64,000 bases of DNA from a virus. The position numbers were made by a program, and so were the translations under genes. The notes beneath the pieces were generated by a model. The model saw nothing but the letters and a program-made list of their open reading frames with translations. It did no database searches and had not been told where the DNA came from. The stretch is taken from the IMG/VR virus record IMGVR_UViG_3300023198_001125; one strand, given 5' to 3'. Positions 2,949 to 64,000 of this stretch are shown piece after piece; the stretch's first letter is position 1; every line of letters starts with the position of its first letter.

Positions 2949-3418
2949 AAAAGAAACCGATTGTTGTGGAGGCTATCCAGTTCACTGGTAACAACACTGA
3001 GGAGGTTATTGTGTTTGCGGGCCCCGAACATAGTATAGGGCCCGCAAAATCTGGCGAGCTGGTAATGATAACCCTTGAGGGGACTATGCTTGCCTCAGAC
3101 GGGGATTGGATAATCAAGGGGGCAGTGGGGGAGATTTATCCTGTCAAAGATGATATCTTCCTGCTGACATATGAGACTGTTGATGAACAGCCGGTTTTCG
3201 ACATCGAAAACTATATGAAGTCACCGTCCCAGTGTGGCTTCTGTGGCTCTGGTGATATTGATGCCGGTTTCTTTGATGCAGATAGTGGTACTGGAGTAAC
3301 CAAGGTCAAATGTGATAATTGTGGAGCTGAATGGCAAGATTACTATGAATTGAAAGGAGTTTCAGATGTATATGCGCCTGATGGTACTTACATCGGTAAT
3401 GTCGAGGCAAAGCCATGA
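2930..3418 (+). CDS. common phage protein (KKPIVVEAIQ...GDWIIKG...YPVK family) with C-terminal Zn ribbon
   Basis: N-terminal motif typical of a widespread phage family; CGFC...CDNC at the C-terminus. Confidence 0.75.
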   Translation: MERIRVKKKPIVVEAIQFTGNNTEEVIVFAGPEHSIGPAKSGELVMITLEGTMLASDGDWIIKGAVGEIYPVKDDIFLLTYETVDEQPVFDIENYMKSPSQCGFCGSGDIDAGFFDADSGTGVTKVKCDNCGAEWQDYYELKGVSDVYAPDGTYIGNVEAKP

Positions 3419-3594
3419 TCAAAGATATTGTGCTTTACGCGTGGATAGTGGCCTTTGCGATCTTCATGTTTTTCATGGTGATGGATATCAGGGACTTACT
3501 CAAGAAGGATGTCATCTTTAGTCCCTGGCATCCTCGTGCGGCTATAGCATCAGTTGTTGTGTGTGTATTGGCCGTTGTTTATGTAATTCTATAG
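3415..3594 (+). CDS. small membrane protein
   Basis: 59-aa ORF translated by hand, ATGA overlap, two hydrophobic segments. Confidence 0.55.
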   Translation: MIKDIVLYAWIVAFAIFMFFMVMDIRDLLKKDVIFSPWHPRAAIASVVVCVLAVVYVIL

Positions 3595-3602
3595 GAGGTG
3601 CT

Positions 3603-3752
3603 ATGTTTACTTTACTGGTTATCTTTTTGACCTGGTTGGTGATAAGGAGGGCTAGGTTGAGCGGTGACATTAGCTGTGTCCTTATTACAGCCATGTTTAT
3701 GGACTTCGCTATCATCATGGTGATTGTCGGCATCTGGGCAGGCTGGTGGTGA
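3603..3752 (+). CDS. small membrane protein
   Basis: AGGAGG RBS, 49 aa, hydrophobic. Confidence 0.55.
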   Translation: MFTLLVIFLTWLVIRRARLSGDISCVLITAMFMDFAIIMVIVGIWAGWW

Positions 3753-4008
3753 GAACTATATTGTTTTGGCTGGTGTGGAATGTCCCGCTGGGCAGGCTGG
3801 CTCCCTGGGTGCTGGGGATAGCTTTAGGAACGCCACCTATGCGCAAGAGCAAGTTGCCTTCGGATGGTCAAGGGGACTAAACAACTACATAACAAAAACA
3901 AAAACTGAACCCCCCACCCCCTCCCCCCTCGCCTGATTAGTACAGTCAGAGCCAAGACAACTTGCCTGACATGCCCCTGGGGGGCGGGGCCCCGCGGCGA
4001 CTACCGTC

Positions 4009-5009: not shown

Positions 5010-5133
5010 ATACATGCCAAACGGGCTTGATGTCAAACCACAAGAACCGAACCTAGGTACTATTCAGTAGTGAATTTACGAAGTTGGCTTTTGTTTATTA
5101 ATTGCTAACTATCTTAATTCTCTGGAGGCTCCA

Positions 5134-5376: not shown

Positions 5377-5561
5377 CCCGTATTTACGCTAATTTCGGCG
5401 TTTTAAGGCGTTTTGCGGAGTATATCCACGTCCTAACCCCCGTAAGCCTAATCAGCATCGTATTTGGCCGTTTTCGCACTAATAATTGGCCAGAAACGAT
5501 GAAATTAGAGGGGATGTTGCTAACGCGTTCTTGGTTAGTATATACCACTAAGGAGGTAGTA

Positions 5562-7250: not shown

Positions 7251-7331
7251 AGGTAGATGATTTGCGGCGCATTTATTGAGTAGCCTGAGTTTTCGGCGTC
7301 GGAAACTTGGGCTACTACTCAGGAGAGTTCG

Positions 7332-9779: not shown

Positions 9780-9952
9780 ACGACATAATGCAAAATCCAT
9801 GGACAACAGTATGCTCATGCATAATCGTGTGGACTGTTATCGCAATGGCATTCATTGCGTATAAGTCAAGAAACAGTCACACGACAAACGAGGAAGATGA
9901 ACAATTCTACTTTCGGGTAAGCGACATAGGCTCAGGAGGCCACGATGAATAA
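9776..9952 (+). CDS. small single-TM protein
   Basis: 58 aa translated by hand, AGGAGG RBS, ATGA overlap. Confidence 0.55.
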   Translation: MNDIMQNPWTTVCSCIIVWTVIAMAFIAYKSRNSHTTNEEDEQFYFRVSDIGSGGHDE

Positions 9953-12287
9953 AGTTGATCGCAAGACCAAGGTGCACGTCATTACACCACAGGGCACACT
10001 AATTGAAGAGCGCACGCTCACCAATAGCCCATGGCCAGAACTTTACCCAGATCGTGACATGGTAATCATCGACTGGATGGCAAATACTCAGATACGACCT
10101 GATGAGGAGGCAATAGCAACACCTGTTGAATACGAGGGCAGGATATACTATGGTAATGCCTATTGGGGGAGCGCAGTAAAACAGGGTGTGACCATCGGCG
10201 TGACTGAACACTTCCTTGACGGCCGTATGGTCAAGAAGGCTGAGGATGGCCAGCGTGTAGGACGCTATCTGTTCGCTGAAGGTCATTGGGGTGCAATACA
10301 AGGCAAGTTACGTGTACGTGTATCACCAATCAACACCATGACACCATGGGGATTGATACATGATGGTGCTGGATTTGTACGCAAGGGATTGGCAGATCGA
10401 GCCTACTCAGGTCTGGATAAAATCAGGCTAGGACGAGCGAAAGAGAGTTATACGTTCTGGCAGAGAATTCCATGGACACTCGAGTTGGCACGAGAACTAG
10501 ACCCAATCCTGTCTGAGGCAGTAATGGCCGCTTCAGACATCTCCAAGTTGCTCTTGCAATACTCACCAGCCTCGTTTGATGAAAAACGAGCACTATACGA
10601 GGCAGACAACACAATGGACGAACACCCATACATTGTGAATGCAATTGCACGCAGTTCTGGTGAGTATCTCTCACGCATGGCTACCACAGCAAATGTGGGT
10701 ACTCGATGCGGCGTGATTGTACCAACACAGGCAGACATCGTAATTCCAAGTATGCCTGATGGCAATCCAGTCATTGGCTATCGACACCCCATCGATAGCA
10801 ATGGCTCAATCCAAGCGATGGTGAACAGCACGGACGAGGCAGAGTTCGTGTCTTATGGTCTATCTCAATTCACGCTAGCATCAGGGGAGATATTTGCTAA
10901 GGGTGTGTCCCGAGAGGTAGAAACAGATGACTTTGATGTCTGGCTATGCGATGAGGATATCAAGATGTCTGAATTGCCCCTAGAGGAAGTACGTCGTGAG
11001 GGCGAGTACGAAATAGACAGCATCTATGCTCAAACTCAGCGCCATAAAGAGAACACGGCCGTTGGTATGAACCTTGATAAAGCATCTGTAAGGCAAGGAG
11101 CAGATGGAGACGGCGACATTGAGGATATCGTTGACGGCAACAAGTACCCTGCATTGTACAGCGCAGTGTTACAACAGCCAGAGGGTACAACCAAGAAACT
11201 CGTGAAGTCAAATAGCCCGCTTGATGAACGTACATCAATGATATACAAGTCAATGATGAACTTGGTTGGATTTGCTACCAAGATCATGACTGACACGCTC
11301 ATGGTAACAGACCGTGAATACCTCGCAGACCAACTAGGCTACGAGAACGAGGCCGAAATGGACGCAGAGGGCAACTACCACATCAAGGTCGGCACTGATG
11401 GCTTCAAGACCAACATCGACCAAGCAGAGGTGCGAGCAAGGTTATCAACACTGCAATCCAACATGTTGGGATTGTTTGGCAAGGGTGCACCATACAGTGA
11501 TTGGCCTAACGACCAAGCATTCACACGCTCCATACCTCAGATTTGGCATGAGGGCATGGACGACGAGGATGCAATCGAGGCAATCATGCCATGGATGGAC
11601 AGCACAGTGCCCAGTATATCCCGGCGTGTACTTCCCGGATTGCAGAACGTGTTAGCGGAGCCGTTCAAGACACGCCCATTGACCACATACAAGTATTGGG
11701 CAGACCATTCCACGTACGATGCGCTTAGAATAGCGAGGAAGATGCAGGATTGGTACAACGCCAATGCCAGCGAGGTCAACTGGCAGGATGCAATCGCAAT
11801 CCAGCAATTCAAGTTGGAATGGAAAGAGCGTATTGCAGATGAGACACTACCACGATACGAACTGGCTAATGCACTATGGTTTATAGCGCATGGAGCACGT
11901 AGTGTCAACAGCGGCGCAGGCTCAGTGTTCCTTGGTTTCCCTGAAGAGGCACTCGACATCGTGCTTGAGAAACCCGGACAGCAGTACGTGAAGACCGAAC
12001 AGGGCTATGAAACGGTAATCGTAGGATTGCCAAAGCAATGCCCCAATGTCCTCGAGATGAAAGGCGAGGTAACGATCATTGACGTACCCCTGAAGAAAGC
12101 AGGCAAACTGATGGTGCGCAAAGCCATTGTTGCCGTCGTGGAAGGACAGTTACAGCCAAGTGACAACCGCTATCCAGAGAACACGATAGCATTAGTCGCT
12201 ACCAATGCCTTCCAGCCTCCAGCAGGTGTATACGAGGCATCAATCACACCAAACAGTGAGGCATCACACCTTATTGTATTGGCATAG
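9945..12287 (+). CDS. single-subunit two-barrel RNA polymerase, YonO/eukaryotic-RdRP-like
   Basis: 780 aa; catalytic GADGDGD (DxDGD), HDGAGFV (DGxG), YRHP, FAKG motifs. Confidence 0.75.
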   Translation: MNKVDRKTKVHVITPQGTLIEERTLTNSPWPELYPDRDMVIIDWMANTQIRPDEEAIATPVEYEGRIYYGNAYWGSAVKQGVTIGVTEHFLDGRMVKKAEDGQRVGRYLFAEGHWGAIQGKLRVRVSPINTMTPWGLIHDGAGFVRKGLADRAYSGLDKIRLGRAKESYTFWQRIPWTLELARELDPILSEAVMAASDISKLLLQYSPASFDEKRALYEADNTMDEHPYIVNAIARSSGEYLSRMATTANVGTRCGVIVPTQADIVIPSMPDGNPVIGYRHPIDSNGSIQAMVNSTDEAEFVSYGLSQFTLASGEIFAKGVSREVETDDFDVWLCDEDIKMSELPLEEVRREGEYEIDSIYAQTQRHKENTAVGMNLDKASVRQGADGDGDIEDIVDGNKYPALYSAVLQQPEGTTKKLVKSNSPLDERTSMIYKSMMNLVGFATKIMTDTLMVTDREYLADQLGYENEAEMDAEGNYHIKVGTDGFKTNIDQAEVRARLSTLQSNMLGLFGKGAPYSDWPNDQAFTRSIPQIWHEGMDDEDAIEAIMPWMDSTVPSISRRVLPGLQNVLAEPFKTRPLTTYKYWADHSTYDALRIARKMQDWYNANASEVNWQDAIAIQQFKLEWKERIADETLPRYELANALWFIAHGARSVNSGAGSVFLGFPEEALDIVLEKPGQQYVKTEQGYETVIVGLPKQCPNVLEMKGEVTIIDVPLKKAGKLMVRKAIVAVVEGQLQPSDNRYPENTIALVATNAFQPPAGVYEASITPNSEASHLIVLA

Positions 12288-12317
12288 TTTTCGGCATCGA
12301 AAAGTAGGGGGATTTCG

Positions 12318-12665: not shown

Positions 12666-12958
12666 ACGCAGACACAAGAATGCAACGCATCCTCAGCAGA
12701 AAGGACAGCATGCACTACATATTCGCAAGAAACATGACATACTCGCCAACAGAGAGCAATCCGTGCCCATCAAGACTGCAAAGAGGGCAGATAGAGAACC
12801 TTGTATGTCGAATAGCATTCGCAATCCAAATTGGCGGAGTGCTCGAACTAATGGAAGTGCCACTGTCCAACAAGCAATGGTGGGTATCATTACACCACAA
12901 AGACGGCTCGAAAGAAGGACTAAGACCCTTTCGACGCCGAAAGCGTGCTGAAGTCTAG
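12662..12958 (+). CDS. hypothetical protein
   Basis: 98 aa, ATGA overlap, AGGAGG RBS. Confidence 0.65.
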   Translation: MNADTRMQRILSRKDSMHYIFARNMTYSPTESNPCPSRLQRGQIENLVCRIAFAIQIGGVLELMEVPLSNKQWWVSLHHKDGSKEGLRPFRRRKRAEV

Positions 12959-16460: not shown

Positions 16461-16481
16461 CCTTTCGACATCGAAAACTAT

Positions 16482-20643: not shown

Positions 20644-20703
20644 GTTACGCAAAAAACCCCCTCCCCAGGGCTGGTTTTCGACACCGAAAAGTAAGGAGTT
20701 CAA

Positions 20704-22180: not shown

Positions 22181-22960
22181 CTATTTCTCAACAGTTTGTT
22201 CTGATATATCCTGATGGAGGAGTTGCTCTTCTAATTGGTCATCACTCTCGTCAGTCTCGCTTTCTGTCATGGAAGACAAAGGCGTCGTTTCTGATGGAAA
22301 ATGTAACTCGTCGGACAGGGCTTGATCTATACCTAATTGATCTTCGAGCGAGCTACTGTCCGGATTGTCGAGTAAGGCAGGATTGGTGCTTATGTACTCT
22401 GCCTCTAATACCTCCTCTTCGACCTCGACGTACTCAGTCGGTAAAACAATCTTGACCTCAGTGAGGTCTATCTTGTTTTCAACAAGAAAGGAGACAAGTT
22501 CCTGTCTATCAGACTGAGCGGGCTGCATGTTCTCGAGCCCATTGAGTTGGATGACCTTCTCGATAGCACGTAGTTTAGTACCGGCGGCTATAGTGCCGGT
22601 CAAGAGACCTTTGAGCTTGCCAATGGCAAGTGGTAGCATGTCCGCTAACGCGCCCTGCGCTGCCTTGTATCTAGGATCATGCCCCAGCTCTGCAAAGAGC
22701 ATGTTGTAAGCAGTATCAAACTCTTCGGTTTTGGTGATGTCACGTAACTGGTGTGGGGAGATTTCCATTTCATCTGCGATCTCAGCCCATGTGCGTCCAT
22801 CATCAAGGTCAAGAAAGAGTGCAGCGGCTAGTTCTGCACGTTGTTGTCGTATAAAGTCTTCGCGCTCTGCTTTAGTGAGCTTTACACGACGTCCCTTTTT
22901 AGACTGGCGCTCTGCGAGAGCACCAGTAACTATTTCTGTATCAACTTTGAGCTTAGACAT
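22181..22960 (-). CDS. HTH-containing protein, possibly terminase small subunit-like or a regulator
   Basis: RTWAEIADEMEISPHQLR helix-turn-helix, acidic tail; lone minus-strand gene in a plus block. Confidence 0.6.
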   Translation of the reverse strand: MSKLKVDTEIVTGALAERQSKKGRRVKLTKAEREDFIRQQRAELAAALFLDLDDGRTWAEIADEMEISPHQLRDITKTEEFDTAYNMLFAELGHDPRYKAAQGALADMLPLAIGKLKGLLTGTIAAGTKLRAIEKVIQLNGLENMQPAQSDRQELVSFLVENKIDLTEVKIVLPTEYVEVEEEVLEAEYISTNPALLDNPDSSSLEDQLGIDQALSDELHFPSETTPLSSMTESETDESDDQLEEQLLHQDISEQTVEK

Positions 22961-22966
22961 ATGTCC

Positions 22967-22975
22967 ATTATAGCA
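22967..22975 (-). promoter_or_regulatory. extended -10 promoter, probably giving a leaderless transcript
   Basis: TG-C-TATAAT ending 6 nt before ATG 22960; no SD sequence. Confidence 0.55.
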
Positions 22976-23003
22976 CAAAGAATTATAAACTTGGAGGTTA
23001 GAG

Positions 23004-25198: not shown

Positions 25199-25871
25199 CC
25201 ACATTAGACATAGTGGTATCTTTCAGATAAAGGATCAAGACATCAGCGTTGTTGGGTGTGGAGGTATCGGCGCCATCACTGCCATTACGCTGGCAAAGAT
25301 GGGGTTCGATAACATCCAACTTTTCGACGCCGAAAACGTTGAGGAGGAAAATATTGCTACTCAGTTCCACCCACTTGGTTCGCTTAACAAACCAAAGAAT
25401 TTGTCGGTGCAACGAGAGATAGGCAAGCACGATCCATCGATAGAGGTGCACACATTTCCCAACGTTGATGAGAATACCAACCTGGTTGGCCAGTTCATCT
25501 TTTGTACGGTGGACAGCATTACCTCCAGGAAGGCAGTCTGGGAGGCGGCGAAGAAAGGCCGGTGGCTGTACTATCTTGATGCCCGCATGGGTGCCGAGGT
25601 GTTTCAGTTATACAGTGTACACAACGCCGACATGGAGTGGTATGATAAGAGGCTGGCTCAAATTAGTGAAGACGACATACCCGAGCTACCCTGTACTGAG
25701 AAAGCAACCATCTACACCGCCATGGGTGCCGCCAGTTTTATCGGCAGTACTGTAAGGAAATTCCTAACCAACCAACATGTTCCAAGATTTCAACAAATGG
25801 ATTACGTCAATGGTACATTCTTTCATTCAGGCTTTCATAAGGAAAGTGACATTTCCCCGCTGTCAAAGTGA
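25191..25871 (+). CDS. ThiF/E1-like Ubl-activating enzyme
   Basis: VVGCGGIG, LFDAENVEEENIATQ, CTVDS, LDARMG, candidate catalytic Cys in PELPCTEK. Confidence 0.9.
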   Translation: MVDHIRHSGIFQIKDQDISVVGCGGIGAITAITLAKMGFDNIQLFDAENVEEENIATQFHPLGSLNKPKNLSVQREIGKHDPSIEVHTFPNVDENTNLVGQFIFCTVDSITSRKAVWEAAKKGRWLYYLDARMGAEVFQLYSVHNADMEWYDKRLAQISEDDIPELPCTEKATIYTAMGAASFIGSTVRKFLTNQHVPRFQQMDYVNGTFFHSGFHKESDISPLSK

Positions 25872-26926: not shown

Positions 26927-28414
26927 TGAATAAAACACAAACTAAGAAGCTGAGGAAGGCCATGTTTCATGCGGGCACTCCCAGTACCGAGTTAGGCATC
27001 TTCAAGTCCAGTATTGGACTATGGTGGGTGGGCAGAGAGGACTGGGGGTTATACCAAACTGCCTGGCCTGATGGCTATTTTCTAACCGCCGACGAGGCAA
27101 TAGAGGCCGCTCTCAATGGACAGCGGCCCGAAAGGACAGAACCATGCATAACGTACAAGCCACGGAGTATGAGGTAAAGTTTCAAAAACGTGGATCAGAC
27201 AATCCAGTTCAGAGAGCGAGGTTCTTTGCGCCTGATGCAGAGAAGACCTTCGAGGCCTGGCTGGAGATGATAGTAGAGAGCGATGACCCCAAGAATTATA
27301 TCTATCTTGGTGAGCGCGAGTGCACCGGCGAACCCATCACCCTGGAGGTGAAGGATGTCATCGTCGAGCCAAGGGGGAAAATTGGCTAGAGATGTGGAAA
27401 TTCCTCAAACATGTGGTTGGATTGATGATACGCTAGGTGATATAGATGCGATGGGGAGCGCCGCCAGGAAAGGACATGTATCGGATGTGGAAGAGCATGC
27501 TGGAAATGCCTGCTGCAATCTTGAATATCTGCGTGAGATGAATGCCGAACTACGGGAGGTAGCCGAGGATTATGGCAGCGATGCAGATATGTTCGAGGGC
27601 CAGGTAAACAGACTTCAGGATGCTCTCCATAGAAAGGATCAAGAGATAGTGTCTCTCGAGGAGAAGATAAGGAGGCTAGAGAATGGCCAGAATTTTAGAC
27701 AACCCCAATGGCAATACTGATAGAGCTATTGTGGAGTACGCACCAGAGGAATTACTTCCCAAGGTTTTCGATGCCGAAAAGTCTACATTTGGGAATGCAA
27801 TCCAATCGATAGCGTGGAAAGACCTGTGGGCTAACGCGCCCCATATTGTCAAAGGAAAAGAATTCAAGTATAGTAATTGCACAGTTATAGATGGACTGTA
27901 TATTGTTACCTTCTATACTGAGCTACCAGAAATCAAGAGCCCGCAACCGGAGGCTAGATGAGCGACATAACTACGAAGACAATGAAGACACCACACGTCA
28001 AGTATATTTCGAAGGGCCCAGGTTTTATGGCGATGATGACTATTCAAGCTGGGAGCGTGTCAGATGCCAAGTTGTTTAGGATGCATGATGACCAGCATGG
28101 TTCTATCATTCAATTCGATAACTATCTGGACATGCTGAACGGATATAGGGTTCTAGGTGCTTTGATAGAGGAGATCAAGAACGATGATCCAGGTTATAGT
28201 GAACAGCCAGAACCTACTGGTGAAGGCAGTGGCGCCGAATAGAGAGGAGAGCGCCCAGACTATCATGAAGGAGATACATCCAGCTCACCGTAAATATATG
28301 GGCAAGGGTGTTTGGGCTGTCGGGAACCCATGGAGATATAGAAATATTCCTGCAATAAAAAGTGCATTGAGGGACGCTCAGAAGCAAATGTCGTTTCTTG
28401 ATGATGCAATATAA
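26926..28414 (+). CDS. run of six hypothetical genes (26926-27177, 27144-27389, 27355-27720, 27683-27961, 27958-28242, about 28184-28414)
   Basis: Overlapping plus-strand ORFs, most with an RBS; starts uncertain. Confidence 0.6.
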
Positions 28415-29156: not shown

Positions 29157-29333
29157 ATGAACAGAGCACAAAGAAGACACCTGAGCAGAAAGCATAAAAA
29201 CAAGAGGTTCAAGTTTAGATTGGGGTGTGCACCTGGGAAATGTTCCTATTGCAATGATAACAGGCAGTATTCATCTCTGTGGAGACTGGAGGCCGCAAAG
29301 GAAGAAATCAAACTTTTCGATACCGAAAACTAG
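29157..29333 (+). CDS. small basic protein with Cys motif
   Basis: AGGAG RBS; MNRAQRRHLSRKHK...CAPGKCSYC; 58 aa translated by hand. Confidence 0.6.
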   Translation: MNRAQRRHLSRKHKNKRFKFRLGCAPGKCSYCNDNRQYSSLWRLEAAKEEIKLFDTEN

Positions 29334-36871: not shown

Positions 36872-37857
36872 TGTTTCAAATCGAAAAAGCTACAAAGTTA
36901 GCTGCGAAAGGTCGCATTGCGATAACCGGCCCAGCGGGCTCTGGGAAAACCTATACTGCACTGGTGATTGCTACTGTGCTGATGGGTGATGGTAGGATTT
37001 TATACCTGGATAGTGAGGCGAGATCAAGTGAGAAGTACGCTGACATATTTGACTTTGATATTCTCCCTTTGGCTCCTCCGTATAGCGTCAAGACTTATCT
37101 TGACGCGATCAAGTTTGCCGGTGAGCAAGAGGGGTATACTGTTGTCGTGGTCGATAGCCTTTCTCACGCATGGAGCGGTGAGGGCGGTGCTCTTGAGCAA
37201 GTGGATGCAGCAAAGACAAAGTACAGAGGAAATACCTACGCCGCTTGGAAAGACGTGACCCCGACCCAATGGAAGATGGTTGAGGCCATCCTTCAAAACC
37301 CGAAGCATGTGATTGCCTGCATGCGTAGTAAGATGGAGCACGTCATCGAGAAGAGTGGTGATAAAACCTCTGTCCGCAAGGTTGGTATGGAACCCATCCA
37401 GCGAGCTGGTATGGAGTACGAGTTTGATGTTGTGCTTGACATGGACTGGGATCACAATGCCATTGTGTCCAAGACACGTATGGATAGTATCGCTGACCTG
37501 GTAGTCAATAAGCCTGATGCTGAGTTCGCTCAGAAGATTGCAGATTGGCTGTCGAGCGGTGAAGCTGCAAGACCAGAGCCTTTGGCAGTCCAAGAGCCTG
37601 CCGTAGAGCAAGAGGCAGTCAATGTTGAAGAAGGAGAGGCCATTGTTGAGGCATTGGGTGAGCGTAGCTTTACTCAGGGTGATTTGGTTGCCCTGGCAAG
37701 ACAGAGCTATGACTTTGATGCATCGCAGGTAGGTGCAGCTCTCAAAGCCCAAGGTCATTCGACTTTCGACGTCGAAAACTGGGATAGCTATGTGGAAGCA
37801 CTTGCGTTGTACAACGAGAGCATCCAAGAGGCCAACCAGGCACATGTCCTTACTTGA
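36871..37857 (+). CDS. AAA ATPase, Sak4/AAA_24-like recombination protein
   Basis: GPAGSGKT, LDSE, VVVDSLSH, YEFD. Confidence 0.85.
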   Translation: MFQIEKATKLAAKGRIAITGPAGSGKTYTALVIATVLMGDGRILYLDSEARSSEKYADIFDFDILPLAPPYSVKTYLDAIKFAGEQEGYTVVVVDSLSHAWSGEGGALEQVDAAKTKYRGNTYAAWKDVTPTQWKMVEAILQNPKHVIACMRSKMEHVIEKSGDKTSVRKVGMEPIQRAGMEYEFDVVLDMDWDHNAIVSKTRMDSIADLVVNKPDAEFAQKIADWLSSGEAARPEPLAVQEPAVEQEAVNVEEGEAIVEALGERSFTQGDLVALARQSYDFDASQVGAALKAQGHSTFDVENWDSYVEALALYNESIQEANQAHVLT

Positions 37858-38080: not shown

Positions 38081-38296
38081 ATGGAAGATCAAGTTCTGAA
38101 GTACGTAAAGGAGTTCATAGAAGAGCATGGATACTCGCCAACAATCAGGGAAATACGTGATAGTTGTGGTATCAGCTCGACTTCGGTGGTGGCTACCTAC
38201 TTGGGTACGCTAGAGAGAAGGCAGCTCATCACCATGGAGGCTGGAAAGCCAAGAACAATACGAGTAAAGGAGAACGGAAATGAAGGTGTTCTTTAG
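38081..38296 (+). CDS. stand-alone LexA-type winged-helix DNA-binding domain
   Basis: FIEEHGYSPTIREI...GISSTSVV..YL..LER...I......PRTIRV; no peptidase domain. Confidence 0.85.
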   Translation: MEDQVLKYVKEFIEEHGYSPTIREIRDSCGISSTSVVATYLGTLERRQLITMEAGKPRTIRVKENGNEGVL

Positions 38297-40405
38297 TCAC
38301 TGGCGCATACCAAATGGTCAGGCCAAGAAGGACAGAGGCGAGCCGCAGTTCGATGGAGAGCTGCTGCGCTACTACCGCAGCACAACGAACATGTATGTTC
38401 CCGATCCAAGAGGTGGCGCAACAACGTGTGAGGCCAGGCTGGACAACGGCCTGGTGTTTTCTGCTACAGCCAAGTGCTCTCGCGGCGACGTGTTCTGCTA
38501 CAAAGAGGGGCGGATGTGGGCGTACGCTCGTGTACTAGAGCAAATGATCGAGAGTGTAGAGGAGTGGAACTATGTGCCCACTGAGCCTGGCACAGTCTCG
38601 ATGATTATGCCGAAGATATCGGCGGAGTACATTGGCCTGGCACTCAAGAAGATTTTGAGAAACCGGAACTACTCTCAGGAGTTTCGAACTAAGCTGGGCA
38701 GGTTCATCAAAGATGTCAAATACTCTGAAGTTTGAGATCGACGCTAGATTTAGTAAGGAGCTCTCTCCCGTCCAAAAGGGCGTGCTGGTCAAAGAGATTA
38801 TTGGTAAGTTACTGGAGGCTCAGCTCGCCGAAGAGTTGGTATACTTATCGGTGCATGTGGGCGGGAGAGAGGTTCTAATCAAAACTTTAGACAAGGAGAA
38901 GATAGAATGAATGATGAAGAAGTTTTCGATGTCGAAAACGAAGAGAAGGCGGTATACGCACCAATGGATGGTGAGTACCCCGATCAGCCTGATGAAGACC
39001 CGCCGGAGATTGCTCGTGAGCTAGTTGACGAAAGTGTCAAGCAACAGATCGAGCTCTGGGTTACTGACGGTAACATATGGGGCCAGGAAAACATGGGTGT
39101 ACGCAAGACAATCAGTGTCGCACCGGTTGACGAGGAGCGTAAGACAGAGGTGATGCTTGATGACAAAGAGATATCACCGAAAGACCTGATTGAACCCCTC
39201 CTGGAGGCAGGTGTATTGTTTGGCCCGTTTACCCTTGCGGTGGACGAGTACAAGGATGGGAGTAAAAAGAAGTTTGCCATTTCTCAGGCTATTGTCTTCA
39301 AGGGCAATGACCTGTCCAGAACCGTTGCTGAAGTACGCCTATCTGCGGCGCGTCAAGTCTACGGGTTCCTGGTCAATTCGGGAGAGGCAGAGCGCTTCAG
39401 TATACTTGACACTGCCAAGTCAGTAGAGGAGAAGAGAGCCTTGGAGCACCCAGCGTTCTTTGGGTTGAACTTTGGCTACACAGCCCCCTGATTGGGGTTA
39501 CTGTCCCCGTTGCTGGACGCAGACCCAATGGGAGAATGGAAAATGCAAGTGTGGACGGGAGGTGCGCAATGGAGGAAAAGACCTGGGATTGGGTAGACGT
39601 AGAGAGCCTGATCGAGAAGAGAGTGTACGAGCTACAACACGATCTGATCAAGCCAGAGGACTTCACTGAACAGGTTCGCATGGACTTACAGGAGCTAATG
39701 GGTGAGCCCGAATAGGGCTCACCAAGGAGTTACTATGAGCAAGACGATAGAGATGTGGATACTTGACAACGCCGAGGAGGAAGTCCCCTGTCCTAGTTGT
39801 GAGGTGAATGTCCAATTGGAGGTTCTCAACAAAGCTTACGAGATGAACAAAAAATTCAAGTGGTCACGTAAGCTAAGCATTAAATGTCCGTACTGCAAGA
39901 AGATTATTGCGTTTGAAGTATCGTGGATACCAGAGTGGGTTAGAGCAAGAGCGATGGAGGTATGATGGTTTCTCTAGATGAGGTATTATACAAAAACAAG
40001 GCTGCAATTCAGGAGGACAGAGCTGACCGAAATCTTGCTCTGTACAGGGAGGAGAAGCGCGATCACTGGGCTACAAAGCGAGAGAGGGATAGTGCCGTTG
40101 AAGAAAGCGAGAGAAGGTGGGCGGGGCACCAGAGAGATCGCGATGACCTGGCGCTAGCCAAAGACCGTATTATGTCACTCTCTAAGATGGTTGTGGAGCT
40201 GTCGAGAAATATAGAAATCGCCAAGGGGACGGAAGAGGCCCTCCGTATACTACTTGACGAGAAACTGAACGATGATATCTTCTTGAGCAAGTTCGGGGGT
40301 GAGCTCAGTGAGGCTGATGTAGATGCCCTGACGCTCATGAAGCAAAGAGCATGGGGGTTATCACAGCTTGCAGGTGAATTGTTAAAAGACAGAGCCCCTA
40401 ACTAG
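38280..40405 (+). CDS. run of six hypothetical genes (38280-38735, 38713-38910, 38907-39491, 39472-39669, 39735-39965, 39962-40405)
   Basis: Coupled ORFs; two carry CxxC pairs. Confidence 0.65.
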
Positions 40406-42110: not shown

Positions 42111-44720
42111 TATTGAGTAACCATATACCTGTACCCAGCAGTCCATGGTTCCCGATCCACTTGCGGAGATAGCCCAATTTAGTGTACCGCCGCTAAGAGG
42201 AACAAGTGCTGTAGCGCCGGAGAATATTCCGTTGGTTATTGGAGAACTTGCACCAGGTGGGTAGCAAGCCAGTGCTAGGTGAGAGGATTGAGGGCCAACA
42301 GCAAAGTAAAGGTCTTTTGGCCATGCTCCACTATCTCTGGCAATGAGCCGCACGAGTACGGCATTTGCGTTCTCTGGTATACCAAGGTTGGCCTCAGTAA
42401 AACTACCAGTGCTTGATGAGCGACCAGTTCCTGCCCATCCAGAAACGGCTACTGCTGATGTGAAATAGTGAACAGCATATACATCTCTGAATGTCCCGCT
42501 TTTGTACGAACGAAGGTTGCCGGTGTAGCCAACGTCTCCTGAGCCAGGCCCAGTTGATCCACCTGCCATAAGTTGAAGAGTACTTATCAATCCATTTGTT
42601 GCTTGAACTGCTGGCCCACTACTCCCAACATTTAGCCCACCAAGGATGCCCATGTCTCCAGTTAGTAAGAGCTGGTCAGTTACTCCGGTTATCTTTCTGG
42701 CCGGAGATGCGTTTGCATCAGTCCATACTTGCCAGTAAGCTTGTGTTGCCCCACTGCTTGCGTTTAGTTTTGTGTATGCGGCATAGTTTGTAGCCGCCAT
42801 CGATAATAGCTCCAGTCCTTCTGATCTGGTATCCGTCGCACCACCTTGGACTATAACCCCAACGGCTTTTGATACTTGCTCACTACCATATATCTTGAAT
42901 GTTGTATTGCCATAGTCCCATTCAATTGCAGCCTCTTGAGCATATGCATTCCATGTAGATAGCTTTATTCCTAGGCCATCGATAGACACTACTCCACCAG
43001 CTGCCTTGATTACAAATGCACCCTCTGTCTCTGCGTTATAGGACATATAGTTGCCAGTGTCGTAATCACCAATGCCAATACCATAGCGGTTGGTGCCAGC
43101 TCCATATGATCCGTACATATTTCCAATGCGTGCTTTTACAAACTGCTGAGACCATGGGCCATGGACTGCTGTTATGTCAATAGTGCATAGCGTCCCGCCT
43201 GCCGGGGCAACAGTTGTGGCCTTGATACCTGTAGAGTAGTCGTATCCTGCTGTTGTTAGTGTCACTGTATCTACTACCGTTGTTGTACCAACTAGTGTGG
43301 CTACGGTGCATGTTGCTGTGCCACTTGAGCCTACTTCAACAAGAGTAAGGATGTTTCCAACAGCATAGCCTGATCCCCCGTCTTCTACTACTACTGTTGT
43401 CACCATATGATTTAGTATTTCAGCAATACTTATGTTTGCTGATGCACCAATGGTTCCATCAGCAGACTGCATAATATAACCGCTGGTAGATGGCCCATAG
43501 TCAATAATAGCCATGCCTTTGTTGAAGGTTGTGTCCCAGCTACCGCTTTCCATGTAGGCGTCGTATTCGGTGTATCCAGTTTGGACATCGGGAGTGCCAG
43601 TGATGGTCATCCATATGTCAACGATAGCAGTACCACTCCATCCCTTAATTCTTACTACATCACCGCTTGCTAAAAGTGCAACATCTCCTGTCTCATTGTT
43701 CTTTGCTTGGAATGCGTTGCTTACTGCGCCTGCTGCTGATGGTGTAGTGAAGCTCTCGTACAGTTCAGCGGCGGATTTGAATACGCCCTGTGAGCCTGCT
43801 GTTGCAGTTATCTCTCCGATATTGAATACGCTGGCACGAATAGTCCCTCTTACAACTACGTTATTGAACTCTGCGTTTCCGTCTAGGGCATAAAGACCGA
43901 AGCCAGTATATCCAGGGTCAAATCCTTCGGACTTGATCATCCTGCTATCACCGTCTATGTATATCCTTGGCGCGCCAGCACCAACAATAATTTGGTCGTT
44001 GGCACTATCAAGAATAATACCGGTCTTCTTTATTTGGGTGGCGTTGATAGTCCATCCAGCAATGACAGCAGAAGAGGAGATTAGCTGGCCACTTTTCGAC
44101 ACCGAAAAGGGTGCACTTGCGGGGGCGCTGTCACCTGCCCATATACGGTAAGTGGCGTCCTCTACTCCTAGTTTTACAATGTCAGGGTCTCTTCCTAGGG
44201 TTATTGTCCCTAGAGGGTTAATGGATACTTGGTCTGAGAAAAGTATACCGTCGCTGGTAACATCCCAGCCTGGGAGAATTTCGCCGATGGCGTGCTTATG
44301 GTCTGCGAGAGCTGGTATAAAACTGAGGTGCTCGAATGATATGCCGCCCTTCTTTACTCTTAGCCCCTGAGTTGCGCTGTTCTCGATTGTGATGCCGTCG
44401 GCTACTACGCCGCCGCCTGAACTACCACCAACAGAGAAGAGAATGCGGTTCTCTCCACCTCCACCACCTCCAGGGGCATACACCACTGGACGCATTGTTC
44501 CATGGTCGTTCTCCCATGTAAGTCCAACAACCTGACCAATTGCTATCTGGTTTGGATCGCCGACTACGCGGCAGTTTCTCATATGGGTTGTGCGACCAGG
44601 TAGCTGGATGTCGACTAGGTTTCCGTCAATTACTGCTACTGTCGCGCTTGTAGGATAGTCAATAATCTTACTATCAACTATTTTTTCAACAAGCTTGCGT
44701 ACTTGCTTAGGTGTTAGCAT
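42108..44720 (-). CDS. tail fibre / receptor-binding protein
   Basis: Gly/Thr-rich beta-structured 870 aa; AEFNNVVVRGTI; last gene of the tail module. Confidence 0.75.
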   Translation of the reverse strand: MLTPKQVRKLVEKIVDSKIIDYPTSATVAVIDGNLVDIQLPGRTTHMRNCRVVGDPNQIAIGQVVGLTWENDHGTMRPVVYAPGGGGGGENRILFSVGGSSGGGVVADGITIENSATQGLRVKKGGISFEHLSFIPALADHKHAIGEILPGWDVTSDGILFSDQVSINPLGTITLGRDPDIVKLGVEDATYRIWAGDSAPASAPFSVSKSGQLISSSAVIAGWTINATQIKKTGIILDSANDQIIVGAGAPRIYIDGDSRMIKSEGFDPGYTGFGLYALDGNAEFNNVVVRGTIRASVFNIGEITATAGSQGVFKSAAELYESFTTPSAAGAVSNAFQAKNNETGDVALLASGDVVRIKGWSGTAIVDIWMTITGTPDVQTGYTEYDAYMESGSWDTTFNKGMAIIDYGPSTSGYIMQSADGTIGASANISIAEILNHMVTTVVVEDGGSGYAVGNILTLVEVGSSGTATCTVATLVGTTTVVDTVTLTTAGYDYSTGIKATTVAPAGGTLCTIDITAVHGPWSQQFVKARIGNMYGSYGAGTNRYGIGIGDYDTGNYMSYNAETEGAFVIKAAGGVVSIDGLGIKLSTWNAYAQEAAIEWDYGNTTFKIYGSEQVSKAVGVIVQGGATDTRSEGLELLSMAATNYAAYTKLNASSGATQAYWQVWTDANASPARKITGVTDQLLLTGDMGILGGLNVGSSGPAVQATNGLISTLQLMAGGSTGPGSGDVGYTGNLRSYKSGTFRDVYAVHYFTSAVAVSGWAGTGRSSSTGSFTEANLGIPENANAVLVRLIARDSGAWPKDLYFAVGPQSSHLALACYPPGASSPITNGIFSGATALVPLSGGTLNWAISASGSGTMDCWVQVYGYSI

Positions 44721-47700: not shown

Positions 47701-48414
47701 GAGGTCATCGACGACATCCATAGGGATTACGTCCTGAACGTCACTCCATGGTTCATAACTCTCTAAAAATCGCATGTACTTCATTCGTTTGCTTTCGTTG
47801 TCGGAGAAGAATACGTAAGTCCATCCGTTTTCATCAGTTTCGGCGTCGAAAAACTCTAGTGAGAGGTCAGTATTTCCATATAGTCTACCCTCCCACTGGT
47901 ACCCCGCTGGATAGGTAACCATTACTGTTGCCCATACACCCGTTGGTGAGGGCACATCACGCATCACGCATGTCGTTGGGCCAATAGGGGCGATTGAGAG
48001 AGTTCCCGCGATAGGGAACCCAGTATATGTGTTTGCACCACCAAGAGATGAGCCGCTAAAATCAGAGTATTTCACTGATCCGCCGCTCTCTTGATAGAAC
48101 ACACGGTTCTGGTAAAGACCTGGCCTGCTGTTGGCTTTCAATGAACGTCCTGTGCTTGTCCATCCCGGCCAACTGCCTCCAGGAGATGATAGATAGCAGT
48201 AGTACAGTGTGTTGCTGATGTTTGCTACTCTATATATGGTGCTCCCCTTAGTGGCGGCATCGTATGACTTCATGTTGCTGTACAACGCACCATCGCTCCC
48301 CGACTTATTCATGTTAGAGAAGCGCAGGCGGTTGTCTCTTGCTACAAGACGACTGCTAACTATACGTGCCGATTGTGCGGCGGCCGATACTAGACCTGAC
48401 GGTACTGTTCTCAT
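44707..48414 (-). CDS. large tail/baseplate hub (Tal-like) protein
   Basis: 1235 aa; follows the distal tail gene; C-terminal ACDPRVEAGDII motif. Confidence 0.7.
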   Translation of the reverse strand: MRTVPSGLVSAAAQSARIVSSRLVARDNRLRFSNMNKSGSDGALYSNMKSYDAATKGSTIYRVANISNTLYYCYLSSPGGSWPGWTSTGRSLKANSRPGLYQNRVFYQESGGSVKYSDFSGSSLGGANTYTGFPIAGTLSIAPIGPTTCVMRDVPSPTGVWATVMVTYPAGYQWEGRLYGNTDLSLEFFDAETDENGWTYVFFSDNESKRMKYMRFLESYEPWSDVQDVIPMDVVDDLNQFAWGGVTRPGSIGSDEPWALTGDLWVGGALIRTDGGHMQMYSQGPPWTMGRDIFVGTDGTTDDNILAGGKMHFIGSKVYYIGPGFGYEADGVDFTGDTSPSLSIDDVHSVRFTSSQNDSAKIIADIPPSVSGSALRSGSDLIWYASVAQEGGSPQEVKMGTFNIDVVLDDQGESGEYKTIIGRSRSAKNLQMWKPDTSYDYWGADTKIASPALRSEVIRVDGHWEVVADKLTCTDMNPVSNLATQEKLGLMYSTARPSRGGIAQMKFKYDSDTNYNPIAGIAINYYVETKEQAAERAGVADPNTLSWLDYGRNYLLVAWGTKEHSGAPGVSLRAVRDGDWVTWPVLNTVSLALSAATDYWLMVRYQEGHIDVYYRADSASSWTKLFTESFEEEDKPYFRAQPVGRFGLFTHNEISWTYNRPHNNTATYLPFGWKVDQYSNALPVPEVYIVDEEQYYVTAIGGTASTARSAWINQECHLWPNDGQPKDNPGFTPPANSFPIWGEYVGGLGDTSANYYNDMMVVVLDGPAKGNTYEVAAGGWDYDAPRQWKPTGGYFSPTNPDWLDFVGNVSYGEWDTKNFSRIFVTEDTRGAFRPGTQWAIVYKGTCTRGYNSTLISSHNDLTEKLNLYTPGRVHIDEFNVFTNEKEWSMEEMIVEIARKAGVQNIEAKKHMDRTVTSSGSWNLGSQFGSYKIKQANCVVHMAMLGSSGKGGIQFGRTSSGSGGWVVYVQGGSNGHAVLMTADSQTVLQSVPLNNSTYATDGWMTFSVQEQRANVYLAGALVAAFKLPEEINTQSWAAPAYSGATVRYNWPELGQRVDNFIMDIGIKGSSSMNRLIGQKRIYWQDDQNGDLRLYREKVTVNSGDPYDLANAGGGEYNETNMATRVRVEGADAAMSIDEDALAEHGNLFFLANSEDVMTAQDAQVEADWLLDEVYKQSNSYNLSGACDPRVEAGDIIEVEFPDETVSIVVDRIAIAMEVSKTQAVFDMQIQGHDANT

Positions 48415-56531: not shown

Positions 56532-56586
56532 TTCAGCCTCCATAGGGGAGGGTTTTCGATGTCGAAAACCCTCCTAAAGGTCACTC

Positions 56587-61203: not shown

Positions 61204-61237
61204 TTCTGTCTCCTTTCGTAGTTTTCGATGTCGAAAA

Positions 61238-61543: not shown

Positions 61544-63054
61544 ATTTCACCATCCTGTTCGTATGTTACTGCAACGGGTGCATCTTGGCCGTGCTCTTGT
61601 TCGATCTCCCCGTCACCGTCTAGTTGCTGGTCGATATAAGCGTCTATGTCGTACTCTTGATCAATCAAAGCATACTCCTCATGGACTAACAGTACATATC
61701 CTACCACAGAGTATGTTATTGTCGCAAGCCCGATGTCTTCATGGCGCTCATACCACCATTCTCCTAAGTATATTAATTGAAGGCCATTTGCTTGTGATAG
61801 CCCAAGACCAGCTAGGTTATGTACCTGCGTAAGTGTAGGTACAGAGAAGGTGTTGGCCTGTGTGATGTTTATTGTGGACAGTTGGTAAGCTGTGTTTACC
61901 CATGGTTTCTCAACTAGGTTAGACTGGGTGAGATTATTTACAGCTATTACATGGGTCTGAGTTAGTGATGGGACAGAGACGATGTTGGCTTGTGCTAACG
62001 CGTACCCAATGACAGAGCCTTCGGGCTCGATGGAAGCCTTCTCTACTTGGTTTGACTGCGATAGATCATTTACTATAAGGTCACTGGTTAGAGTGAGGCT
62101 CTTCTTCTCTACAGTGCTCTCTTGTGAGAGGTCCTTGAGGGAAAGATTGTGGGCTTGTGTAAGTGTAATGGCGGTGAAGTCACTAACCTGTGACAAATTG
62201 TCAATGGCCAGCGTACTCTCTTTCGTTATGCCAACCTTGTCTACAGCATTGGACTGGGAGAGATCGTCAACAACAAGCGTGCTTTCTGTGGCGCCAACAG
62301 GGAAGTTGAAGAACCGCTGTGGGTAGTCTATCCAGGCAGGTTGTTTTGTTTCTGGAGGTGCGTATTGGCTATTGTATGCGTATGTTACTGTTGTTGCTTC
62401 TTTGCCGTCGACGACGTTGGCTTTCTTGCGATCAGTTAGTGGCGCATAAAATACAAGCCCATTCGGAAACCATAGAGGGGAGTGGCCCTTGGCTAGCCAG
62501 GCAATTTCGCTTGGCAAGAGCATCCTTCTCCATATACCGTAGTGGGCTATGGCGCCATCAAATTCTGCACCACCTGAGTTTCTAGTCCCTATTCGGAATT
62601 CGTCTGGATGTGTTTCTGTTGATGAACCACCAGAGCTGGAGCTACGACCGACTGCGATGCCGTCCTTGTAAGGTTCTATGTTGTCTGCTTGGTATATACC
62701 GCCACCAATTCCACCTAGGTCTGTATATGCATAGTGATGCCACTCATCCCAATCGATGGTTGCATTAAAGGCTGCGTATCGGCTATTTGGTCTGAAGGCC
62801 AGTATGCGTGACCCGCTATCGATGCTATAGAGCCTCCAGCCCCATGTGTTTGTGGCACCGCTTGTGCTGTAAGCGGTGCCAATATATGGGTTGCCCGTGA
62901 TATCACCAGTTGGTCTTAGCCAGGCAGACATGGTGTATGGATGTTCCCATGCATCCATGGGAACATACTTGTCATAAAAGACTGTCTGGCCAGTTGTCTG
63001 GTCGAAACGGGTAGAGCCCCTCAAACGCAAGACTTCGGGCTTCGCAATTATCAT
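61540..63054 (-). CDS. LamG/concanavalin-like virion protein with repetitive stalk
   Basis: YTMSAW...WHHYAYT...FDGAIAHYGIWRRML; repeated L.V..LSQ motifs. Confidence 0.7.
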   Translation of the reverse strand: MIIAKPEVLRLRGSTRFDQTTGQTVFYDKYVPMDAWEHPYTMSAWLRPTGDITGNPYIGTAYSTSGATNTWGWRLYSIDSGSRILAFRPNSRYAAFNATIDWDEWHHYAYTDLGGIGGGIYQADNIEPYKDGIAVGRSSSSGGSSTETHPDEFRIGTRNSGGAEFDGAIAHYGIWRRMLLPSEIAWLAKGHSPLWFPNGLVFYAPLTDRKKANVVDGKEATTVTYAYNSQYAPPETKQPAWIDYPQRFFNFPVGATESTLVVDDLSQSNAVDKVGITKESTLAIDNLSQVSDFTAITLTQAHNLSLKDLSQESTVEKKSLTLTSDLIVNDLSQSNQVEKASIEPEGSVIGYALAQANIVSVPSLTQTHVIAVNNLTQSNLVEKPWVNTAYQLSTINITQANTFSVPTLTQVHNLAGLGLSQANGLQLIYLGEWWYERHEDIGLATITYSVVGYVLLVHEEYALIDQEYDIDAYIDQQLDGDGEIEQEHGQDAPVAVTYEQDGEI

Positions 63055-63494
63055 GTTTGTATGTTGTACAGAAGGTACTTCAGTGTGTTACCAGAGGATG
63101 CAAATGCAACGCCGATCTCATTGATTATTAGAAATCTGAAATCCTCTGGCGGAAGAAGAATATTGCGGAGGACTACATAGCGGGCCGCTGTTGCGGACGC
63201 GTCAAGCTGAAAGTCTCCAACATGTGTATTGTTAGCTGGGTCTAATGATGCACCTCCATAGGCGTAGTTGGAGCCGTCTACTGTTGGTAGCAAATATAGT
63301 TCTACCCGAGCATCAGTTCCTCTAGAGGTTGTTGTTGCTAAATATAGCTCTACGTCTGCGAACATGTATAGCTCGCCTGCGGCGTCATTGGATATGACAT
63401 CACCCAGAACGTTGCCGCCATCTGCTAAGCTGTTCAGGTCTGTAGTTTCATAAGTAGTTGGGCCACTGGGTGCTTCCCATTTAGTTGTTCCCAT
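63051..63494 (-). CDS. virion-associated hypothetical protein
   Basis: 147 aa, beta-rich, AAGGAG RBS. Confidence 0.65.
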   Translation of the reverse strand: MGTTKWEAPSGPTTYETTDLNSLADGGNVLGDVISNDAAGELYMFADVELYLATTTSRGTDARVELYLLPTVDGSNYAYGGASLDPANNTHVGDFQLDASATAARYVVLRNILLPPEDFRFLIINEIGVAFASSGNTLKYLLYNIQT

Positions 63495-63503
63495 AATTGC
63501 TCC

Positions 63504-63902
63504 TTATATGGCTTGGGCTTTTACGATATCGCTCTCGCGGACATTGCCAAGGCCAAGTTCAGTGCCTCTGCTGATATCATCCTTGCGTGCGTCTGCTAGG
63601 GCTACGATTGTATCTGAGCCTCCGCCGAATACCGATGTAAAAATAGTGGCCTCGTTACCAAATGGGTCAAGGTCTCCACCCATGTGGAGAATGTCCCATA
63701 TTTGACGTTGCTCGTCGGCAGTGAGAGCTACCCAGTCTGCAATTACAACTGTGTTGAGTACCTCCGTAGGTGACATTCTCTCTCTGTTTTTCTCTCTGTA
63801 GAGAGTATTCATGTCGCTGGCGATTTCTTGGTTTGTCATACCAGAATACCCTCTTCCCAGAGGGTCTGCATCTATCTCTGTCATGAGTACTTGATAGTTC
63901 AT
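63504..63902 (-). CDS. hypothetical protein
   Basis: AAGGAG RBS before ATG 63902. Confidence 0.65.
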   Translation of the reverse strand: MNYQVLMTEIDADPLGRGYSGMTNQEIASDMNTLYREKNRERMSPTEVLNTVVIADWVALTADEQRQIWDILHMGGDLDPFGNEATIFTSVFGGGSDTIVALADARKDDISRGTELGLGNVRESDIVKAQAI

Positions 63903-64000
63903 GGTTCTCCTTTTCGGCGCCGAAAACTTAGATGATGTTCGGGTTGACTGTGAAGGGCACGCTTGATGTGTAGCCGTGCCATGCGGGTAGTTCAACCTTA

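Follow-up and report, generated by a model that had tools for sequence, protein, structure and literature searches.

The 64-kb stretch of viral DNA from the IMG/VR record IMGVR_UViG_3300023198_001125 (hereafter, the window; its proteins belong to an 81-kb contig) represents a new siphovirus-like phage and contains 16 exact copies of the spaced palindrome TTTCGRYRYCGAAA (TTTCG-RYRY-CGAAA, where R is a purine and Y a pyrimidine). The sites are enriched, exact, symmetric, restricted to the phage, evenly spaced and conserved in position, and each genome of the family carries a single type of site. From these properties we infer that the sites are read by a dimer, that this dimer comes from the phage, and what its role is; specifically, the palindrome appears to be where a symmetric dimer encoded by the phage docks to play a role across the whole genome, a reading to which we assign a probability of about one half.

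A pattern scan of the window detects the 16 exact sites where about 0.004 are expected, and 100 dinucleotide-preserving shuffles of the window contain no TTTCGRYRYCGAAA matches. A scan with the spacer left free (TTTCG-N4-CGAAA) returns the same 16 sites, so that every spacer is RYRY, and allowing one mismatch adds just two more, TTTCGGCGTCGGAA at 7291 and a non-RYRY match at 53392 that is probably due to chance. When the codons of all called genes are shuffled synonymously, with the proteins and the codon usage preserved, only about 5 of the 16 sites remain, these being the intergenic copies, which the procedure leaves untouched. The in-gene sites vanish under this shuffle and are therefore under selection at the DNA level, rather than being a by-product of the protein sequence. 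In 8 of the 9 in-gene window sites, the reading frame is T TTC GRY RYC GAA A, that is, F-[DG]-x-E-[KN]. The preliminary description of this DNA had counted 16 exact sites and one with a single mismatch, all with spacers of alternating purines and pyrimidines, against a chance expectation of 0.004; the count and the spacer rule (16 of 16) are reproduced here, the arithmetic of the expectation is right and the enrichment survives the codon-preserving null. The sites listed there are real as well, but their positions were given 1-2 nt too low.

The anatomy of the site was analyzed in a set of 58 type A sites (TTTCG-RYRY-CGAAA), each oriented in the direction of transcription. All of them have invariant arms and 57 have an RYRY spacer; over 175 kb, there are 58 perfect and 6 one-mismatch copies. 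Outside the arms, a symmetric preference is observed for Y at position -1 and R at +1, and for A at -3 and T at +3, so that the full consensus is a sequence of about 20 bp with twofold symmetry, A-n-Y-TTTCG-RYRY-CGAAA-R-n-T. Complementarity within a site exceeds that in within-genome shuffles only at -1/+1 (49 of 72, compared to 42 expected, P = 0.012), and no co-variation is detectable within single sites beyond these flanking positions. Judging from the sequences, a symmetric flank preference without pairing is more readily explained by a symmetric dimer that recognizes duplex DNA than by selection for a longer stem.

The motif is confined to the phage. Three whole Chloroflexia genomes of 5-6 Mb (G006, G007 and G008) were scanned, each with the motif type of its own prophage (denoted G006p, G007p and G008p below). 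In G006, 17 of the 24 matches fall into one 57 kb prophage region; the corresponding figures are 11 of 19 in one region of 52 kb for G007 and 27 of 28 in one region of 94 kb for G008. The matches outside the prophage (7, 8 and 1, respectively) do not exceed the reversed-pattern control in G006 and G007, where most of them lack the RYRY spacer; in G008, the control yields 0. A host genome-wide repeat of the HIP1 or REP kind is thus rejected, the host chromosomes being at chance level outside the prophage. The density in host chromosomes, which the preliminary description had singled out as the way to tell a host element from a phage system, accordingly points to the phage, as far as the hosts of the relatives are concerned, and a host factor, one of the binders proposed there, is unlikely given the chance-level occurrence of the motif in host genomes.

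De novo palindrome counts in each related genome distinguish motif types A to E (Table 1). The genomes are essentially monotypic, with a single type each. All the palindromic types retain the dyad symmetry, and types A-C share the RYRY center while the letters of the arms vary.

The array density is about one site per 2-4 kb (0.12-0.48 sites per kb in the relatives), and in 11 genomes or fragments the spacing is significantly more regular than under random placement, with a coefficient of variation of the gaps of 0.20-0.74 versus about 0.9 (Fisher-combined p of 2e-11). In-gene sites of the window recur at the identical nucleotide in G001, G006p, L054, L055 or L020, in proteins that are only 29-52% identical. 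Near the counterpart of the 12289 site, L054 and L056 have a site no more than about 60 nt away. In G004, a type B genome, the F-D-A-E of the site at 47838 is encoded by TTT GAT GCC GAA, so that there is no type A site there. Conversion of one type into another in place within the E1 gene was considered and dropped, given that the type B sites are 47-54 nt away at the codon level. Different motif types at exactly one spot are seen only after the tail tube gene, where the window and G006p carry type A and G002 carries type D; the type B site of G007p is 17-18 nt off.

Seven of the 16 exact window sites lie in non-coding DNA, which accounts for about 10% of the window (binomial P of about 0.002). 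These seven and the one-mismatch site are located in short intergenic gaps, either 0-13 nt 5' of a Shine-Dalgarno sequence or, in one case, separating the genes for tRNA-Lys and tRNA-Tyr. Across the relatives, about one-third of the sites are found no more than 45 nt upstream of a start codon led by a ribosome-binding site (RBS), compared to 15% of random positions in what is a loose test. The intergenic gaps are just 30-45 nt long here, and a site of 14-20 bp in such a gap therefore ends a few bases from the Shine-Dalgarno sequence. Thus, the location of sites just before an RBS, which the preliminary description had pointed out, is a valid observation but probably a by-product of the compact genome layout and not a translation signal.

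The favored reading is that of a selected duplex DNA site with twofold symmetry that would be bound by a sequence-specific homodimer from the phage. Each subunit would recognize a single half-site, A-n-Y-T-T-T-C-G-R-Y, and the central pyrimidine-purine step might supply the flexibility required for binding. The specificity of the reader and all the sites of a genome would shift together, giving rise to the lineage-specific variants. The dimer would coat, silence, organize or mark as self the phage chromosome rather than control a single promoter; the role appears to be genome-wide because the sites ignore the gene and promoter context yet stay evenly spaced. The genome-coating system proposed in the preliminary description stands in so far as the array is phage-specific and genome-wide, whereas the candidate binders named there hold poorly.

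Several observations weigh against the docking of a phage-encoded dimer. No reader protein was found among the phage candidates examined. The families ParB_N (PF02195), HTH_ParB (PF17762) and ParBc_2 (PF08857) are absent from the prophage contigs of G006-G008; in a six-frame search of these whole genomes, matches occur just on other (host) contigs. In the protein encoded at 22181, the only conserved helix-turn-helix (HTH) protein, the recognition helix does not co-vary with the motif type across five type A and two type B genomes, and no motif site flanks its gene. Two relatives, L021 and L033, lack any such motif. The spacer is not symmetric relative to transcription, with AC in the 5' half of the sense strand in 34 cases and the mirror-image GT in the 3' half in 13; before an RBS, the mirror-pair spacers split 13 to 2 in the same direction. 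This asymmetry may reflect a constraint or a function tied to one strand. At in-gene sites, part of it is explained by the choice of the GAC codon, and at intergenic sites, avoidance of ATG or GTG may explain another part. Finally, the motif that follows the tail tube gene tips a long hairpin with compensatory changes in the stem in several lineages. In the window, this hairpin spans positions 56547-56574, approximately, with a predicted RNA fold of -21 kcal/mol. A palindrome at the tip of a hairpin after the tube gene costs nothing to place, so that the case is suggestive of an RNA role but not decisive.

Among the potential readers, the stand-alone LexA DNA-binding domain encoded at 38081, which had been put forward in the preliminary description, is the sole Pfam DNA-binding domain among the 91 open reading frames (ORFs) of the window. 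It is rejected because a phmmer search finds this protein in the window alone and in none of the motif-bearing relatives; G006p has no LexA homolog although it shares the motif type and the syntenic region is covered. The database relatives of this protein (34-48% identical) come from unrelated phages without a dispersed array. One of these unrelated phages, L018, which has its own LexA-like gene, contains four tandem GTGCG-N4-CGCAC sequences within 100 nt (1468-1562), a cluster that resembles origin iterons or an operator; in L022, a phage with a LexA relative, there is no enriched palindrome.

The second protein proposed as a binder, 22181, belongs to a real and conserved family with 83 database homologs, always encoded by a lone opposite-strand gene next to a ubiquitin-like cassette. 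The structural model (mean predicted local distance difference test score, pLDDT, of 64) consists of an HTH followed by helices that best match a nonameric phage protein, 2ao9 (Z-score of 5.9 over 99 residues). It also matches phage small terminases (E217 TerS, Z-score of 4.4), along with a phrog_2538 match; with Z below 6, the likeness to small terminases is modest. A comparison of the family profile to PDB sequences yields a sole match, a designed HTH repeat. Members of the family occur in genomes of types A and B, and the type D prophage shows a weak match to the C-terminal part. The recognition helix is nearly identical in one type A and one type B genome and varies within type A. Given a helix that is independent of the motif type and the lack of a nearby site, 22181 fares poorly as the proposed binder; it is the leading candidate for the reader, yet an unlikely one. 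A reader of the ParB/KorB type is rejected, since the prophages have no ParB domain; there is no ParB family among the 91 window ORFs either (64 of the 81 kb).

A literature search for the motif strings gave no match. There is one published description of evenly spaced, exact, phage-specific palindromes, namely, those of Cluster O mycobacteriophages, and the 17-bp dyad repeat of these phages is the closest published parallel, by an analogy that would place both in one descriptive class and does not imply homology. The Cluster O repeat (5'-TGTTCGG-NNN-CCGAACA, with 34 perfect and 3 one-off copies in Corndog) is about 40% intergenic, is absent from the host and was proposed to be recognized by a dimeric binder; its function is unassigned there (PMC4351075). 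Both groups are siphoviruses with genomes of about 70-80 kb, in which the repeat has tens of copies, invariant arms and a short variable spacer; in both, about 40% of the sites are intergenic, the host lacks the motif and the positions are mostly kept among relatives. One-mismatch copies are rare in both as well (34 + 3 in Corndog, 58 + 6 in the Chloroflexi phages). However, the Cluster O repeat has 7-bp arms and a 3-bp spacer, compared to 5-bp arms and RYRY here, and the hosts belong to different phyla; five variants, even spacing, confinement to the prophage and codon-level conservation are documented here.

Among known binding sites, the OB operator is a 13-bp palindrome with TTT...AAA ends. 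It is recognized by KorB of the IncP plasmid RK2, a CTP-dependent clamp of the ParB family with 12 OB operators that has a genome-wide silencing or partition role on RK2 (PMC11790492). These operators resemble the sites described here in being exact palindromes that occur about every 5 kb over an element of about 60 kb, some of them within genes or far from promoters. The difference is that no ParB-family domain is present in the prophage regions or the window ORFs, and that the phage integrates and is not a plasmid; thus, the window shares with the ParB/KorB class the dispersed, exact palindromes of 13-16 bp but not the ParB protein. The stoperators of Cluster A mycobacteriophages are similarly phage-specific, with many copies in both gene modules and variants that co-evolve with a phage protein (PMC6550527). 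They differ in that each is asymmetric, follows the direction of transcription and binds a repressor monomer (PMC9283540), as opposed to a palindrome in a window with no syntenic CI-like gene. KorB-OB and the Cluster A stoperators are the best mechanistic models, each failing a defining test here.

The preliminary description held that the motif is neither a canonical parS nor a LexA box, which is supported. The LexA (Cheo) box of Gram-positive bacteria and Chloroflexi is CGAAC-N4-GTTCG. It is similar in the letters of the half-sites and in the 4-bp R-N-R-Y-like spacer, and the window has a gene for a winged HTH of the LexA type; however, the half-sites are inverted (TTTCG...CGAAA), and the LexA-like gene is missing from the motif-bearing relatives. 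Chi, the uptake signal sequences (USS) and the DNA uptake sequences (DUS) are exact, strongly over-represented, specific to a genome, evenly spread and tolerated within genes in preferred frames, and serve as self-marks. Unlike the spaced palindrome, these are asymmetric words that known machines read on one strand.

Among the alternatives to a dimer-bound duplex, the site could act as a single-stranded hairpin, either an RNA stem-loop UUUCG-RYRY-CGAAA of the polycistronic transcripts, to which a sequence-specific RNA-binding protein or nuclease would bind for processing, stability or translational control, or a priming or loading signal in the DNA of the lagging-strand template; we consider this alternative unlikely. 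This explanation draws on the dyad symmetry of every palindromic variant, the location of about 30-45% of the sites 0-13 nt 5' of a Shine-Dalgarno sequence and of one between two tRNAs, the asymmetry of the spacer relative to the direction of transcription, the mismatch at 7291, which stays paired by G-U in the sense RNA, and the long hairpin, with compensatory stem changes, that the motif caps behind the tube gene; in addition, intervals of 2-4 kb come close to the length of Okazaki fragments. However, the free stem is weak, with a predicted energy of just -3 kcal/mol for the lone RNA hairpin, and more than half of the sites are in genes, where cleavage or a bound protein would hurt expression. 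The arms are invariant and do not co-vary, and the symmetric preference extends to +/-3 without complementarity beyond +/-1; a symmetric RYRY rule is expected of duplex recognition; the wobble type is found in only one of the six one-mismatch sites; and closeness to an RBS is expected for any site in gaps of 30-45 nt. Somewhat more doubtful is the possibility that the sites are self-identification tags read by the packaging apparatus (22181), a recombination nuclease or a system that degrades host DNA but spares the tagged DNA of the phage, with the even spacing ensuring that any few-kb stretch of phage DNA contains a tag. Sites that are exact, evenly spaced, phage-specific and present in genes in one preferred frame would suit such tags, as would the small-terminase-like core of the conserved 22181 protein, and the array persists in the phage of the window, where no CI-like gene occupies the place that it has in the prophages, which points to a function in lytic growth. 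The known tags, though, are asymmetric and read on one strand, whereas the fixed 4-bp RYRY spacer together with the dyad symmetry suggests a simple dimeric binder; moreover, the resemblance to small terminases is modest, as noted above, and L021 has a separate arrangement of HNH, a 169-aa protein and TerL, with a possible small terminase of its own.

It is improbable that the sites are stoperator-like operators, all of them bound in lysogens by an immunity repressor that silences the prophage by stopping transcription along its length, with the variants corresponding to immunity groups. The relatives are indeed prophages located beside tRNA genes, a CI-like HTH_3 gene is found at the prophage end in G006p, G007p and G002, the sites span the early and late modules, and the lineage variants resemble the co-evolution of repressors and stoperators in Cluster A (PMC6550527). 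Yet in the three prophages, 400-615 nt separate the start of the CI-like gene from the nearest motif site, which is off the divergent promoters, and the window phage has the full array with neither a CI-like homolog, at the syntenic position or elsewhere in the 64 kb, nor an integrase family match. Because the array is kept with deep positional conservation in this CI-less phage, its function would extend beyond prophage silencing. In addition, the known stoperators are asymmetric, have a fixed orientation and are recognized by a monomer (PMC9283540), whereas the array site is dyad-symmetric to +/-3. That the sites serve the two-barrel RNA polymerase encoded by the phage as promoters or terminators is largely refuted by the distribution in genomes and appears very improbable. 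The enzyme itself is clearly of this type: its AlphaFold2 model (pLDDT of 90) matches QDE-1 and RDR2 in Foldseek with values of about 1e-9 and, with about 1e-4, non-virion polymerases from the Thermus phages P32 (gp64) and P74 (gp62), and the G-x-D-x-D-G-D motif is invariant in 20 homologs. In phage P23-45, polymerases of this kind recognize promoter motifs of their own (PMC10770324), and the intercistronic sites and a weak orientation bias are compatible with the idea. However, G007p and G008p, with 11 and 27 sites, have no homolog of the polymerase in a six-frame hidden Markov model search, and L021 has the polymerase but no motif, so that the polymerase is rejected as the reader; furthermore, the motif is dyad-symmetric, most sites are in genes, and some abut the Shine-Dalgarno sequence, which leaves no room for a downstream start site.

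Returning to the docking of a phage-encoded dimer, a more specific version of this reading, which we regard as tentative and rather doubtful, is ParB-free self-marking. A new kind of dimeric reader, possibly the 22181 protein, would bind the evenly spaced lattice and coat, compact or flag the chromosome during lytic growth, and the reader and the lattice would switch together between lineages, giving rise to incompatible "marking groups". Such self-marking could serve to sort host and phage DNA for packaging, to protect against nucleases or to control transcription globally.

Table 1. Motif sites and candidate reader genes of the window, motif types of the phage family, and prophages in host genomes
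Feature	Sequence	Coordinates	Strand	Context
Exact site	TTTCGACATCGAAA	3196..3209		inside ORF 2930-3418, reads F-D-I-E-N
One-mismatch site	TTTCGGCGTCGGAA	7291..7304		intergenic, 27 nt 5' of the start of ORF 7332
Exact site		12289..12302		1 nt past the RNA polymerase stop, 15 nt ahead of the ATG of ORF 12318
Exact site		12929..12942		in the 3'-terminal part of ORF 12662-12958, read as F-R-R-R-K; exact position kept in L020
Exact site		16463..16476		fills the gap between tRNA-Lys(CTT) (end 16462) and tRNA-Tyr (start 16482)
Exact site		20676..20689		14 nt 5' of the ATG of ORF 20704; position kept in L054
Exact site		25322..25335		within the ThiF/E1-like gene (F-D-A-E-N); identical codons in L054
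Exact site		27766..27779		within ORF 27683-27961; position kept in L054
Exact site		29315..29328		14 nt 5' of the ATG of ORF 29343
Exact site		32967..32980		within conserved ORF 32683-33186, upstream of the DnaB module; kept in L055
Exact site		37764..37777		3' end of the AAA_24 gene (36850-37857)
Exact site		38924..38937		17 nt into ORF 38907-39491
Exact site		44094..44107		within tail gene 42108-44777 (-); kept in G001 and G006p, 36-43% amino acid identity
Exact site		47838..47851		within tail gene 44707-48414 (-); kept in G001 and G006p, 29-34% identity
Exact site		56554..56567		intergenic gap following the tail tube gene; tips a longer GC hairpin
Exact site		61223..61236		1 nt past the stop of ORF 61238-61543, 19 nt ahead of the start of ORF 60892-61203 (-)
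Exact site		63912..63925		abuts the Shine-Dalgarno AGGAGA, followed by an ATG near 63896 (-)
Two-barrel (YonO/QDE-1-like) single-subunit RNA polymerase		9945..12287	+	780 aa
22181-family gene		22181..22978	-	HTH, small-terminase-like helical core, acidic tail
LexA DNA-binding domain, stand-alone		38081..38293	+	71 aa
Motif type A	TTTCG-RYRY-CGAAA			window, L020, L054-L056, G001, L008, G006
Motif type B	TTCCG-RYRY-CGGAA			G004, L034, G007, L057
Motif type C	GGTTCG-RYRY-CGAACC			G003, L012, L036
Motif type D	(G)TTTCC-WGCGCW-GGAAA(C)			G002, G008, L013 and others
Motif type E	TTGCGTCGACGR (half-palindrome)			G005, L004
Prophage of the family in G006		C6, 228-286 kb		beside tRNA genes
Prophage of the family in G007		C11, 145-198 kb		beside tRNA genes
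Prophage of the family in G008		C10, 7-100 kb		beside tRNA genes

The genes of the window are on the plus strand up to about 40.4 kb, a part that encompasses the early and replication genes, 13-14 tRNAs, SSB, RNase H, a DnaG-like primase, DnaB, the AAA_24 protein and a PD-(D/E)XK exonuclease. Lysis and tail genes, including those for a 2319-aa tape measure protein and the tail tube, and the major capsid protein gene are on the minus strand between about 40.4 and 64 kb. Megablast and tblastn searches against cultured phages detect no relative beyond a 23% capsid match, and IMG/VR contigs hold relatives with capsid identities of 50-92%. Other relatives are found in metagenome-assembled genomes labelled Anaerolineae and Chloroflexia, some on very long contigs. 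The phage part in G007 is flanked by a tyrosyl-tRNA synthetase, a PAS/GAF/HD signaling gene, tRNA-Cys and tRNA-Gly, and the one in G006 adjoins tRNA-Met; these relatives are therefore integrated Chloroflexi prophages. The motif lattice delimits the prophages precisely in G006, G007 and G008, and the contigs of G006 and G007 stop just past the primase gene, at the other prophage border.

A 100-nt sequence at 29047-29146 (plus strand) matches the Rfam model of tmRNA (RF00023) with 56 bits (gathering threshold 47) and is a mini tRNA-like domain, since the match spans both ends of the model. The region in which it lies, with the primase gene on one side and that of DnaB on the other, is where integration opens the prophages of G006 and G007. 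The element could be related to attP. The ubiquitin-like conjugation cassette at 23004-25871 (plus strand), which includes the ThiF/E1-like gene, is conserved throughout the family, being also present in L054-L057 and G006p-G008p, and always adjoins the opposite-strand HTH gene of the 22181 family. ARAGORN identifies 13 tRNA genes at 15235-18125 (plus strand), and Rfam adds a weak 14th (15601-15678, 30 bits). The gene at 5888-6769 (plus strand) encodes a SLOG/YpsA-like domain protein with a weak DprA-like match and adjoins a gene for a DUF4326 protein. In one relative, the polymerase gene is followed by the RNase H and SSB genes, and in L055, a Ro60/TROVE protein with a vWA_Ro60 domain is encoded at 13351-14970, near the SSB gene. 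The conserved ORFs 32349, 32683, 33131, 20704, 12318, 29343 and others have no match in Pfam, PHROGs or NCBIfam.

Another relative, L003 (IMG/VR 3300027985_000682), contains at 146-11943, in addition to TTGCGTCGACGR, seven copies of (R)ACCTCGAGG(T) in 15 kb, where about 0.2 copies of the 8-mer are expected, so that two arrays may be present in one genome. At 5342-6617, the same contig has eight in-frame GATACNTTCTA repeats (D-T-F-Y), about 70-280 nt apart, in a gene that looks like one for a repeat-domain tail or fiber protein.

Discovery of the reader would reveal how a virus marks or controls its entire chromosome at once, and this protein could define a new class of sequence-specific DNA-binding proteins with readily changing specificity. 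The motif is also a practical marker for finding these phages and for setting prophage borders in Chloroflexi genomes. With at least five co-evolving variants, prophage-in-host controls, codon-level conservation and no ParB-type reader, this phage family is a clean comparative system.

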